Assembly (NCBI GenBank): GCA_001790815.1
Contig: MGDU01000018.1
Coordinates: 788-64,787, forward strand
Direction of reading: 5' to 3'
DNA length: 64,000 nucleotides
DNA from: Candidatus Uhrbacteria bacterium RIFCSPHIGHO2_02_FULL_46_47
GTDB taxonomy: Bacteria; Patescibacteriota; Patescibacteriia; GWA2-47-26
The notes below the pieces were generated by a model, which had not been told where the DNA came from, ran no database searches, and saw only the letters and a list, made by a program, of their open reading frames with translations. Each line of letters opens with the position of its first letter. Position 1 is the stretch's first letter. The position numbers and the translations under genes are program-made. This document shows positions 1 to 7,912 of this stretch, piece after piece.

Positions 1-24
1 GGCGTGATTAAAAGTATGGTTTTA

Positions 25-55
25 CACCCTGTGTCGCTATGGTATACTGTATTTG
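25..55 (+). promoter_or_regulatory. candidate sigma70-like promoter (TTTACA-16/17-tgGTATACT extended -10) upstream of a small three-gene operon
   Basis: 'ggttttacaccctgtgtcgctatggtatact' read directly; extended -10 TG present. Confidence 0.3.
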
Positions 56-96
56 TGGTGAGAACTCTTTCAATGTATAGCGAATATAGGGTGATA

Positions 97-276
97 TGAA
101 AGATCAATTTTTCAAAATCTACGCGAATCTACCCCTCAATCTCCGCTCTGAGATTGTTTTAGTTTTGTCTGACAGGGGCCCCATTACATGGAATGTGGCA
201 TACACTGAAATTAATAATGATACTAAGCTCGGGGAACTTATACTACAAAAATTACAAGAATTAAAGATTATCTGAA
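97..276 (+). CDS. small hypothetical protein (59 aa, MKDQFFKIYANLPLNLRSEIVLVLSDRGPITWNVAYTEINNDTKLGELILQKLQELKII); below the ORF-track length cutoff
   Basis: Open frame ATG97..TGA276, translated by hand; immediately precedes 282..497 with a 5-nt gap. Confidence 0.4.
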
Positions 277-281
277 CCTGT

Positions 282-497
282 ATGGAAGACGAAATCAAAG
301 AACTTGTTATCGCTCGCCTACAAACATTGCCTGACGATATTTCTGTTTCGGTGGGAGCCGATGGGGAATATTCGAGAGATCAGATCATTCAACATGTCGA
401 AGAAGGGGATGAAGTTGGGAAAAAAATGGTTGAGATTGAAATGAATTTTTTGCGCAGCCTTAAAGAGGGAAAACTTTACGAAACATATGGGGAGTAG
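282..497 (+). CDS. small acidic hypothetical protein (71 aa)
   Basis: ORF track; overlaps the next gene by 11 nt, indicating an operon. Confidence 0.45.
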   Translation: MEDEIKELVIARLQTLPDDISVSVGADGEYSRDQIIQHVEEGDEVGKKMVEIEMNFLRSLKEGKLYETYGE

Positions 498-1146
498 TGT
501 TCTTTTTACGCGTCCCCGGCATGATTATCCAACTCGATATCTTGCAACATGGAATGATGAAATAATTGAGCGTGCAAAAGAAAAGCGGATGGATGTGTTC
601 GATTTAGAGGGAAAGAGGGCGAAGCGTAAAAATGTAGAGAGTTTTTTGCAACATAAGCAACCGAATCTTGTTTTATTCAATGGCCATGGGGGCCCTGATT
701 TGATCATGGGTCATGAAAATGAGATTATCATGCGGGTGCGGAACAATGAGAGTATGCTTGCCAAAACTATCGTGTATGCGCTTGCATGCGCTTCTGGGGC
801 GATACTTGGTCCTGCATGTGTAAAGGCCGGTGCTCGAGCATATATTGGTTATGACGCTGATTTTACATTTATGCGTTTGAATAATTTTCGTACCCATCCT
901 CAGGATGACTCTCTCGCCAAGCTTTTCTCTGGGCCATCAAATTTAATAGGTACTACCTTAATCAAAGGTCATACAGCGGGAGATGCATATAAGCGTTCTC
1001 AAAAGGCTTTTCGCCGAAATATCAACCGCTTGATTTCAAGCGAGACGAGGCCGGAGGAAAGTGCAACACTGCGATATCTTCTGTGGGATATGCAGCATCA
1101 AGTTTGCCTTGGCAATAAAGAAGCAAAGATAGTATCGGATATTTGA
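487..1146 (+). CDS. hypothetical protein with candidate clan-CD (caspase/CHAT/legumain-like) His-Cys dyad: hydrophobic strand+HG ('LVLFNGHGG') and hydrophobic strand+C-x-S-G ('IVYALACASG') about 45 aa apart
   Basis: Motif spacing and context read from the translation; no alignment possible here. Confidence 0.4.
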   Translation: MGSSVLFTRPRHDYPTRYLATWNDEIIERAKEKRMDVFDLEGKRAKRKNVESFLQHKQPNLVLFNGHGGPDLIMGHENEIIMRVRNNESMLAKTIVYALACASGAILGPACVKAGARAYIGYDADFTFMRLNNFRTHPQDDSLAKLFSGPSNLIGTTLIKGHTAGDAYKRSQKAFRRNINRLISSETRPEESATLRYLLWDMQHQVCLGNKEAKIVSDI

Positions 1147-2888: not shown

Positions 2889-3374
2889 TCAAGCTTTCCG
2901 TTTTAACTTCTCTCGGATTTCTCGATCAACCGCGCGTTTCTTAATTACCTCGCGTTTTTCGTATTTTTTGCGGCCGCGACCAAGCCCAAGTTCAACTTTC
3001 AAACGGCGTCCCCTAGTATACACGGATAACGGTACAAGTGTCAAGCGCTCGGCCTCAAGCTTACCCATAAGCTCTTTAATTTCCCGGGCGCGCAATAAAA
3101 GCTTGCGGCTACGGGTCGGATCATAACTGGGAAGCGCTCCGGCCTTTTTATACGGGCTGATATGCGCGTTTAACAGCCAGACCTCGCCGGCTTTGAGCGT
3201 GGCATAAGCGCCTTTAAGCGAAACATTACCGCCACGCACGGATTTCACCTCTTGTCCGGAAAGCACAATGCCGGCCTCATAGATTTTAAGGATATCATAA
3301 TCAAATTTTGCTCTAGAATTAGTGGCAAGGGTGGACATAGATAAGTGTAACGTGAAACGTGTAGCGTGTAACAC
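2889..3374 (-). CDS. smpB: SsrA-binding protein SmpB
   Basis: KFDYDIL..YEAGIVLSGQEVKSVR... signature. Confidence 0.95.
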   Translation of the reverse strand: MLHATRFTLHLSMSTLATNSRAKFDYDILKIYEAGIVLSGQEVKSVRGGNVSLKGAYATLKAGEVWLLNAHISPYKKAGALPSYDPTRSRKLLLRAREIKELMGKLEAERLTLVPLSVYTRGRRLKVELGLGRGRKKYEKREVIKKRAVDREIREKLKRKA

Positions 3375-3455
3375 TAGTATAGCATATTTTAAATAAGAAG
3401 ACGGCGCCGAGGTTGAACCAAGGCGCCGAGGAACGGAAACGGGCGGGGAGGGACA

Positions 3456-3638
3456 TCAGGAGTCGATGTCCTTGATGATGGCGTGGCAGGCAACCACGCC
3501 GGAAAGGACGAACATCGTGAGCGCGGCCGCCACAGCGTGCATCGGGATCTTCACGCCCTGGCAGTAGCCATAGGCCATGCCCGTTAGCGTGAATCCCATG
3601 GCAACAGCCAGCGGACCGCCAACCATCACCCGCAACAT
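3456..3638 (-). CDS. small membrane protein (60 aa, MLRVMVGGPLAVAMGFTLTGMAYGYCQG...) in a GC-rich islet
   Basis: Internal Met of ORF 3456..3914; its start overlaps the stop of the upstream ORF (TGATG coupling). Confidence 0.45.
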   Translation of the reverse strand: MLRVMVGGPLAVAMGFTLTGMAYGYCQGVKIPMHAVAAALTMFVLSGVVACHAIIKDIDS

Positions 3639-3844
3639 CAGCGCACCACCACGACGTGGCGGGGCGAGCGGATGCGGCGCAGGCGGGCGATCAGACAGCG
3701 CGGCTCGATGGTGAACCGGGCGAGTTGTCGGCCGCGCCAGCCAAGCTCGCGCCAGCCCTGCTGGCGCATGTACTCGCGCACCACGATGGACACGAGCGTG
3801 AGGATCAACCCCGCGACGAACAGCTGTCCGATGATCTCTCGCAT
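3638..3844 (-). CDS. small membrane protein (68 aa) in a GC-rich islet, translationally coupled to the downstream small ORF
   Basis: Hydrophobic N-terminus; SD-like 'gaaaggggg' upstream; local GC well above background. Confidence 0.45.
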   Translation of the reverse strand: MREIIGQLFVAGLILTLVSIVVREYMRQQGWRELGWRGRQLARFTIEPRCLIARLRRIRSPRHVVVVR

Positions 3845-4074
3845 GGTAAGAACCCCCTTTCAAGGGTGATGACCGCGCGACATGCGCGGTCTCAAGCTTG
3901 CCTTTTAAAAACAAAAAGCATCCTTGAAACCACGATGCTACATAATATCACGAAGTTGCGACTTTGTCAACCCCTAAAGGGCAAAGAGAATCGTATTCAG
4001 CGCTCAGTTTACAAATGAGAGCCAGCACCCGGCTCAATGGGTGGGCGGGGTTACGCAATGAACAAATATGATCC

Positions 4075-4254
4075 CTAACTGGGAAGCCGGCTCGCGTGCA
4101 TGATGGTAAGACCCACGATGCGCTCGCCACGCCGACGCACGAGTATATTATTTTCAAGCAGTTCACTATCGGTGGCCTGTTGCGGACGCTCAAACGAAAC
4201 ATACAGGACATCTGCTTCTTTATCATAATCAAACCACGCATGAGGATATTGCAT
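4075..4254 (-). CDS. DUF2283-like protein (candidate antitoxin); start at internal Met MQYPHAWFDYDKEADVLYVSF...
   Basis: DUF2283-type motif 'YDKEAD.LY' and C-terminal 'GERIVGLTIMHAS'. Confidence 0.55.
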   Translation of the reverse strand: MQYPHAWFDYDKEADVLYVSFERPQQATDSELLENNILVRRRGERIVGLTIMHASRLPS

Positions 4255-4277
4255 GCGCAAAAAAATGGGAACTGCTT

Positions 4278-4601
4278 TTAATGTTTCTTGGATTGCGATT
4301 TGCGCCATATAGTTGAACGATGTTTGGTAAGTTGGTCAGATTTTGAAGTTTGAAAGGCGGTAATAATAAATCCATTCTTTGGCGGCATTTCTCGATAGAC
4401 CACGACAAGTGCAAGCGGTATAAGTTCGCGCACGGCAAGCAATTCACCTTCCTCTCCTTGCACAATATAATCCGGTTCAGCCACTGCTTCGAGTACCTCG
4501 TGAAATTGTCCTGCCAGATCATCGTGGTTTTCAACAATATGCACCCACCGCTCACTGGTAAGCCGAATCGGCACGGAATTTATTGAGAGCACCATCTCCA
4601 T
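4278..4601 (-). CDS. DUF4258/RelE-fold toxin-like protein (…VHIVENH…L.VVY.E…FIITAF)
   Basis: Pattern similarity to DUF4258/BrnT-type toxins; paired with a DUF2283 gene. Confidence 0.5.
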   Translation of the reverse strand: MEMVLSINSVPIRLTSERWVHIVENHDDLAGQFHEVLEAVAEPDYIVQGEEGELLAVRELIPLALVVVYREMPPKNGFIITAFQTSKSDQLTKHRSTIWRKSQSKKH

Positions 4602-7839: not shown

Positions 7840-7912
7840 TGGTGGACCGTAGGGGAATTGAACCCCTCTGGAATCGCTGACAACGATTCCTGGTCACCAG
7901 ACACAACGGCCC
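7840..7912 (-). tRNA. tRNA-Asp (anticodon GTC) with encoded CCA. The D-arm is atypical and short
   Basis: Reverse complement GGGCCGT…GGAATCG-TTGTCAG-CGATTCC…AGGGGTTCAATTCCCCTACGGTCCACCA. Acceptor, anticodon and T arms are canonical; the D-arm is uncertain. Confidence 0.55.

Follow-up and report, generated by a model that had tools for sequence, protein, structure and literature searches.

In a 64,000-nucleotide stretch of Candidatus Uhrbacteria bacterium RIFCSPHIGHO2_02_FULL_46_47 (contig MGDU01000018.1, positions 788 to 64,787 of the forward strand; the window in what follows), three closely packed genes encode two small proteins, S1 and S2, and a larger protein, L, which modelling shows to have a predicted clan-CD (caspase/CHAT/gingipain) fold with an intact and invariant His-Cys dyad. 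The best explanation of the data is that S1, S2 and L form a self-sufficient unit of three genes that carries its own promoter and is exchanged horizontally. As to its function, we tentatively favour, with rather less than even confidence, a protease-partner module in which L is the endopeptidase, S2 its accessory and S1 a core component controlled by proteolysis, the whole acting as an accessory conflict or stress module. An earlier note on this DNA had described an operon of closely packed genes for proteins of 59, 71 and 219 aa. The open reading frames (ORFs) listed in Table 1 bear out these three genes and the end of the proposed span, but the first ORF starts at position 96 and not at 97. 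S1, S2 and L are genuine genes rather than chance ORFs, because each has hundreds of homologues and S1 has a ratio of nonsynonymous to synonymous substitution rates (dN/dS) of ~0.05. None of the three proteins matched Pfam, NCBIfam, PADLOC, PHROGs or the sequences of the Protein Data Bank (PDB).

The AlphaFold2 model of L, built with 29 homologues, reached a predicted local distance difference test score (pLDDT) of 94.2 and a predicted template modelling score (pTM) of 0.91. Its elements follow the order beta-alpha-beta-alpha-beta-[H]-hairpin-beta-[C]-alpha-beta-three helices-beta, a predicted caspase-hemoglobinase fold, an alpha/beta/alpha sandwich with the central sheet arrangement of clan CD, that agrees with the caspase/CHAT-like peptidase proposed earlier. 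When the model was compared with the PDB by Foldseek, the best match was SAVED-CHAT (8tl0, expect value (E) 1e-6, template modelling (TM) score 0.64, normalized to the query). Further matches were caspase-4 (7wr0), gingipain R (1cvr/4ief, TM 0.60), separase (5u1t), caspase-11 and two C11 enzymes. All the significant matches (8tl0, 7wr0, 1cvr, 4ief, 5u1t, 6ns7, 6mzo and 6nag) belong to clan CD, and unrelated folds appeared only at E>=4e-3, with a probability mostly below ~0.6 and with lower TM-scores.

The dyad occupies the expected places in the DSSP assignment of the model, where strand 61-65 leads into N65-G66-H67-G68 and strand 95-99 into A100-C101. The HG and ACxSG motifs noticed previously are indeed present ('LVLFNGHGG' from residue 61, 'IVYALACASG' from residue 95), although His67 precedes Cys101 by 34 residues and not by about 45. 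Among 162 diverse full-length homologues of L, down to ~33% identity, the histidine is kept in 161 and the cysteine in all 162, and the glycines flanking the histidine are as constant (G66 162/162, G68 161/162). Two acidic positions are also near-invariant, D13, which lies just after strand 1 (D or E in 161/162), and D141 (159/162). The earlier note had named two outcomes that would speak against its proposal, namely a non-caspase fold and a dyad not conserved in homologues; both points were examined, and both results support the clan-CD reading. We infer that L is an active cytoplasmic endopeptidase. Since D13 and D141 are conserved alongside the dyad, L may prefer a basic P1 residue, with these two positions as candidate pocket residues.

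An exhaustive HMMER scan over 1.84 billion representatives assigned to the L family 1341 representative clusters at E<1e-3 and 164 at E<1e-30, nearly all of them single-domain proteins of ~215 aa. L lacks a signal peptide, a sensor domain and a prodomain, the absence of a recognisable sensor being a correct observation of the earlier note that extends to the family. No Pfam-A match was obtained for L at E<=10, including CHAT (PF12770), Peptidase_C14, C25, C11 and C13, nor was there any match in NCBIfam or PHROGs, and the comparison of the L profile with PDB sequences gave no clan-CD match. L is a separate minimal family inside clan CD, outside the CHAT, C14, C25, C11 and C13 hidden Markov model families, and, with the fold as predicted, it ranks with the smallest cysteine proteases of the caspase/CHAT fold.

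CHAT proteases act on small dedicated partners encoded nearby, Csx30 and PCaspase being examples (bioRxiv 10.1101/2023.06.23.546230; PMC11089037). These enzymes, such as SAVED-CHAT of type III CRISPR and of the cyclic oligonucleotide-based antiphage signalling system (CBASS) or TPR-CHAT/Csx29 of Craspase, are bacterial and cytoplasmic, offer the best structural match for L and share its His-Cys topology. However, L shows only 12-16% identity to them, fails to match the Pfam CHAT family even at the permissive cut-off used, and with its 219 aa carries no SAVED, TPR or other sensor; moreover, the cassette has no CRISPR or CBASS link, and neither S1 nor S2 is related to Csx30, Csx31 or sigma factors. 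With gingipain R (C25), clostripain-like C11 enzymes, caspases (C14) and separase (C50), L shares the clan-CD fold, an H-G after strand 3 and an (A/S)-C after strand 4. The dyad residues of gingipain R lie 33 apart (as described for RgpB), close to the 34 of L, and the conserved acidic residues of L could form a basic-P1 pocket like those of gingipain R, C11 enzymes and separase. In contrast to the C25, C11, C14 and C50 enzymes, L is far smaller and lacks a prodomain, an Ig-like domain, a secretion signal and a linker between large and small subunits.

S1 is the best-conserved member of the cassette. Its family comprises 1296 homologous clusters, all of 59-90 aa and standalone, and a 100% identical S1 occurs in a Candidatus Uhrbacteria genome. 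The AlphaFold2 model (pLDDT 97) has an alpha-alpha'-beta-beta-alpha-alpha arrangement for which Foldseek found no structural neighbour in the PDB or BFVD, and the predicted fold is new. Residues F5, L12, P13, R17, P29, W32, E38, T43, I49 and L53 are invariant, and the C-terminus, L-K-I-I, is near-invariant (I58, I59) and lies free, outside the helices of the model. The conservation pattern LP..R.E...G..W..A..E...T had given rise to the idea of a helix-turn-helix (HTH) of the sigma-70 region-4 or LuxR type. This candidate was rejected, as the model has a beta-hairpin and no HTH neighbour; only 1 of 30 members matched a Pfam HTH family (MerR_2, E 0.045). More generally, no DNA-binding structural neighbour of the S1 model was found, and S1 is neutral to acidic (median pI 5.8). 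In the subgroup formed by loci L004, L012 and L013, S1 lacks the usual ...ELKII end and extends 25 nt into S2 (e.g. L004 3709-3733); the S1-S2 junction is there an A-rich, Lys-coding stretch (…IWGKRKRK / MGKKKKKIKK…), which could be an overlap or possibly a slippery site.

S2 is acidic, as the earlier note had stated, with 18 D/E against 8 K/R residues and an isoelectric point (pI) of 4.4. It has 940 homologous clusters of 69-91 aa, standalone and none with a Pfam domain, and it lies between S1 and L in every L locus with sufficient upstream DNA. Paralogy of S1 and S2 was considered and rejected, the hhalign probability being only 2-3% with 30 or 150 sequences; at low stringency their alignment retains the same LP...G...G register, which is only suggestive, the profile-profile comparison being non-significant. 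A ribosomally synthesized and post-translationally modified peptide (RiPP) system with a precursor and a leader peptidase was likewise ruled out, since both small proteins are strongly conserved, presumably folded domains instead of hypervariable core peptides.

The recurrence of the three-gene layout in other genomes, which had been suggested as a check, was assessed from two sides. On the L side, GTDB species genomes and contigs carrying homologues were sampled, and wherever the upstream DNA sufficed, L was preceded by homologues of S1 and S2. The gaps between genes range from -41 to +15 nt, besides three larger S1-S2 overlaps (-47, -71 and -88 nt) that are due to over-long start calls. On the S1 side, 502 S1-encoding stretches of metagenome contigs were collected and 80 kept; both S2 and L are present in 56 of the 61 loci having >=950 nt downstream. 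The order S1-S2-L thus recurs in almost every locus examined, across phyla of the candidate phyla radiation (CPR), Omnitrophota and DPANN archaea. No fourth conserved gene or sensor recurred when the flanking ORFs were clustered, and the flanks vary. According to the record labels, the carriers include many CPR/Patescibacteria phyla, Omnitrophota, one Latescibacter single-cell genome and a few metagenome-assembled genomes labelled Gammaproteobacteria, together with DPANN archaea, among them the complete genome of archaeon GW2011_AR20, Nanoarchaeota and Woesearchaeota. Occurrence is nevertheless sporadic, with 34 loci among 185,579 species genomes for the one stringent pattern used.

The three proteins are inherited together, from closely packed and often overlapping genes. 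Mean pairwise identity is 50.9% for S1, 48.3% for S2 and 45.3% for L, S1 exceeding L in 312 of 406 pairs, and the divergence of S1 and S2 correlates with that of L (r 0.60 and 0.72, respectively). Across homologues, the pI of S1, S2 and L is 5.8, 5.2 and 8.8. For all three proteins, identity between archaeal and bacterial sequences about equals that between bacterial ones, which indicates that the cassette has moved horizontally between domains. Its G+C content is 39-43% against 47-50% nearby. A tRNA gene lies within 700 nt upstream in 4 of the 34 loci, where ~1.2 would be expected (p ~0.03), a weak hint that the cassette integrates beside tRNA genes. The promoter-like sequence that the earlier note had placed ahead of the genes is the top match of the region (10/12), but promoter-like sites as such are not in excess, with four found versus 3.8 expected from shuffles. 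The site is supported by the homologous loci, since most bacterial ones have extended -10-like elements 20-50 nt upstream of S1; in archaeal loci, A/T-rich TATA-like stretches are found upstream of S1.

Some L copies appear interrupted or truncated in their genomes: L is split into two ORF pieces in locus L038 and is represented by a short ORF in L037, and L031 and L036 retain no intact ORF for it. This suggests that the protease gene decays often.

In one S1 clade, the gene for a 341-aa ClpP-like serine proteinase of the SDH type (PF01972) ends ~26-34 nt upstream of S1. The SDH gene at L082:1941-2963 scores 44.2 bits against PF01972 (curated cut-off 31.3), and the precomputed PF01972 annotation of the gene upstream of P0407 agrees. 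Three states of this locus were found. In the first, RadC-SDH-S1-S2-L, L is intact (L047, and also L045, where SDH is just 57% identical, and L060); in the second, SDH-S1-S2, L is reduced to fragments (L074-L079); in the third, SDH-S1 stands alone in three downstream contexts (L073/L122, L058/L059 and L082/L095/L099). Those that carry S1 alone have full loci as their closest relatives, a pattern implying that S2-L was lost independently at least twice in this clade. In the loci without S2-L, S1 has a dN/dS of 0.04-0.08 at a dS of 0.4-1.4. An S1 (P0355) ~88% identical to the SDH-linked ones is found in a plain triad of a Nealsonbacteria genome. From these three states it follows that S1 can outlast L and S2 with another protease adjacent, and that S2 vanishes only where L is gone. 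As to the surroundings of this clade, SDH lies in L122 between a DUF3800_VII defence-candidate gene and a restriction-modification (RM) gene of the MmeI type, DUF3800_VII being the only PADLOC match obtained, as a neighbour of one SDH-S1 locus. In some SDH-S1 loci, a 203-212-aa protein without assigned function follows S1.

The protease-partner module that we favour would work as follows. L would cleave as a cytoplasmic clan-CD endopeptidase, and, being basic, would be bound by the acidic S1 and S2 in a stoichiometric complex. S2 would be an accessory specific to L, since losses of S2 are confined to loci that have lost L, and could act as a pseudosubstrate-type inhibitor or as an adaptor. S1 would be the core component, its activity or abundance being under proteolytic control, because it is kept under strong purifying selection beside the unrelated SDH protease after deletion of L and S2. 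Rather than having a housekeeping function, the whole cassette would be an accessory module for conflict or stress, in the manner of a toxin-antitoxin or defence system, as suggested by its variable insertion sites, lower G+C, cross-domain transfer and AbiE, TumE, DUF3800 and RM neighbours. A model for part of this scheme is separase-securin, in which a clan-CD protease is paired with a small acidic partner; by analogy, S2 and possibly S1 could be both pseudosubstrate inhibitor and chaperone. However, that pair is eukaryotic, securin is intrinsically disordered whereas S1 is compact and folded in its model, and the partners share neither sequence nor structure.

Several observations weigh against this module. 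SDH is linked to S1 in a single S1 clade only, one that was sampled repeatedly from related metagenomes, and the dN/dS estimate of S1 pools divergence before and after the loss of S2-L. RadC also adjoins S1-S2-L without SDH, so SDH could have been inserted beside a pre-existing cassette, S1 surviving only by virtue of its shortness. A Pfam scan of the 116 nearest neighbours returned mostly unrelated housekeeping genes, and PADLOC-DB 2.0 gave no match for S1, S2 or L at E<=10. No relatives of the cassette were found in the phage and plasmid collections searched; an origin from phages or plasmids was rejected, with no PHROG match, no IMG/VR relative by pattern search combined with tblastn and no tblastn match in INPHARED phages or PLSDB plasmids.

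The persistence of S1 beside a different protease after the loss of S2-L could also mean that S1 itself is the effector or toxin, with the protease (L with S2, or SDH) as its antidote, the toxin being eliminated by proteolysis as in type VI systems such as SocAB, or as its activator, cleavage setting the activity free as for gasdermins and Csx30. This reading overlaps the protease-partner module, from which it differs only in giving S1 a toxic or effector role, and we regard it as unlikely. S1 is the best-conserved protein, and its many invariant polar residues (R17, E19, E38, N41, T43 and K52) suggest that it has a conserved target of its own. Proteases swapped around a constant substrate are the pattern of bacterial gasdermins, CalpL and Craspase, and the cassette resembles CalpL-CalpT-CalpS, Craspase-Csx30-RpoE and gasdermins with their proteases in combining a constant small partner with differing protease folds, here L or SDH; SocAB, a type VI system, shares proteolysis as the control step. 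Yet those systems have a defined input (cyclic oligoadenylate, target RNA or a phage cue) and a defined output (a sigma factor or a pore), and neither is recognisable here. There is no sensor to trigger activation, the cassette having neither the sensor domain nor a conserved fourth gene, unlike Craspase, CalpL, SAVED-CHAT and the type IV Thoeris caspase, and no cleavage site was identified. S1 is neither a sigma nor an anti-sigma factor, in contrast to the CalpL and Craspase modules, and as a 59-aa acidic globular mini-domain it is unlike any known toxin. A related idea, which we hold to be improbable, is that S1 is a new small effector or regulator gated by interchangeable proteases (L with S2 as adaptor, or SDH) in a hitherto undescribed class of proteolysis-switched conflict module, the protease serving for example as toxin-antitoxin antidote or as trigger, and that ultra-small episymbionts (CPR, DPANN and Omnitrophota) pass this module on to one another, even between Bacteria and Archaea.

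The layout of the cassette invites comparison with classical tripartite toxin-antitoxin (TA) systems of the omega-epsilon-zeta or paaR-paaA-parE type, in which case S1 would be a DNA-binding autorepressor, S2 a labile antitoxin blocking the active site and L a toxin degrading essential proteins once S2 is lost. As in omega-epsilon-zeta, a small protein, a small acidic protein and a larger basic enzyme are encoded in this order by an accessory, mobile element, here with gene overlaps and a promoter of its own. The cassette is also present in single copy, transferred across domains and variable in context, with other TA genes nearby. We nevertheless give this reading a low probability, since S1 lacks a DNA-binding fold and is kept without L, and since the enzyme evolves faster than its partners. 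A neutral to acidic S1 with no HTH, ribbon-helix-helix or other DNA-binding structural neighbour offers no recognisable regulator, and small partners that diverge less than the putative toxin are the reverse of typical type II systems and atypical of fast-evolving antitoxins. Moreover, an autorepressor of a lost toxin would not remain under purifying selection where L is deleted. No PADLOC or TA-family match was obtained. To our knowledge, no TA toxin has a caspase fold, and none was found in the literature.

A housekeeping proteolytic complex of ultra-small cells, with S1 and S2 as structural or chaperone (securin-like) subunits and the substrate encoded elsewhere, appears quite unlikely. It would account for the strong conservation and correlated divergence of all three proteins, for neighbours that are mostly housekeeping genes, with RpoD adjoining in three loci, and for carriers (CPR, DPANN and Omnitrophota) that share a lifestyle. 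However, the sporadic occurrence, the variable insertion sites, a G+C content below that of the neighbours and the repeated loss or pseudogenization of L (L031, L036-L038, L052 and L074-L079) point to an accessory element. Clan CD holds several transamidases, and the near-invariant extreme C-terminus of S1, placed outside the helices in the model, could serve an L that acts as a transpeptidase or ligase (like legumain/butelase, GPI8 or PorU) joining or tagging proteins through it; but this is very improbable, as direct evidence is lacking, no conjugation-type partners were found, the C-terminus is hydrophobic and no Gly-Gly or Asn/Asp-type ligation motif, and no ligase role is known for the SDH protease found in place of L.

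The features of the cassette are collected in Table 1. In the region 1-1300 of the window, all three genes are on the same strand, with a gap of 6 nt between S1 and S2 and an overlap of 11 nt between S2 and L. The hairpin that follows sits between the end of L and the convergent rplT-rpmI-infC genes, and is likely a terminator common to L and rplT.

Table 1. Features of the S1-S2-L cassette, in window positions
Feature	Positions	Strand	Basis or remark
Promoter-like site TTTACA-16-TATACT, TG-extended -10	21-48	+	consensus match 10/12
S1 ORF (59 aa, pI 6.1)	96-275	+	ORF listing
S2 ORF (71 aa, pI 4.4, acidic)	282-497	+	ORF listing; overlaps L start
L ORF (219 aa, pI 9.5, basic; candidate clan-CD cysteine protease)	487-1146	+	ORF, AlphaFold2 model, Foldseek
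Candidate catalytic His67 codon	685..687	+	DSSP of model, conservation
Candidate catalytic Cys101 codon	787..789	+	DSSP of model, conservation
G+C-rich palindromic hairpin with T-runs, 12-pair stem	1224-1251	undefined (scored on -)	likely shared terminator

Beyond the hairpin, the window carries rplT, rpmI and infC (1262-2496, - strand) and a transfer-messenger RNA (tmRNA) gene (2503-2882, - strand; Rfam RF00023, 122 bits) with the tag peptide AKNVFSTVASAFRAPAFARA, directly adjoined by a 161-aa smpB-like ORF (2889-3374, - strand). A sharp G+C-rich patch at 3400-3900 (67% versus ~45% around) holds a 152-aa Arg/Ala/His-rich ORF (3456-3914, - strand) without Pfam match, which may be a gene or non-coding DNA. 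At 3 kb from the cassette, there is an overlapping gene pair (4075-4601, - strand). One product, of 77 aa, belongs to DUF2283 (E 1e-10), and the other, of 107 aa, matches PBECR2 (RelE/barnase-like nuclease) weakly and below threshold; this is probably a TA pair. Two tRNA-Asp(GTC) genes, one at 2256-2333 of locus L042 (same organism, outside the window), 668 nt upstream of S1, and the other at 7840-7912 of the window (- strand), flank an 8.5-kb stretch with the cassette, rplT-infC, tmRNA and smpB. The ~570 nt between the upstream tRNA gene and S1 contain short ORFs only, and a LemA gene lies further upstream. In other loci, known TA modules adjoin the cassette or take the place of parts of it: AbiEi/AbiEii genes directly follow S1-S2 where L is missing (L052 3541-4898) or lie upstream of RadC (L082 108-1210), and a TumE toxin pair follows an orphan S1 (L098 3311-3965). 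RpoD directly adjoins the cassette at three loci (L011 1087-2394, L040 3128-4552 and L041 2553-3770), on the downstream side in one case and on the upstream side in the other two, too few to interpret.

In the literature, we found no description of a minimal caspase-like cassette in CPR or DPANN, of an SDH-S1 pair or of a relevant role of SDH proteases. The enzyme fold is already known, while the L family, its two partners, the predicted S1 fold, the cross-domain occurrence in CPR and DPANN and the exchange of one protease for another are new. CPR bacteria and DPANN archaea account for much of microbial diversity, and most of their genes are without assigned function; three unannotated protein families, with hundreds to >1000 sequence clusters each, are defined here. 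The cassette clearly illustrates how genes are exchanged between nano-sized bacteria and archaea, and L, with its intact dyad, would serve as a minimal model for clan-CD proteases regulated in trans by small proteins. Should S1 prove to be an effector gated by proteolysis, this would represent a new logic for prokaryotic toxin-antitoxin and immune systems, and would provide a simple protease/substrate pair for biotechnology.

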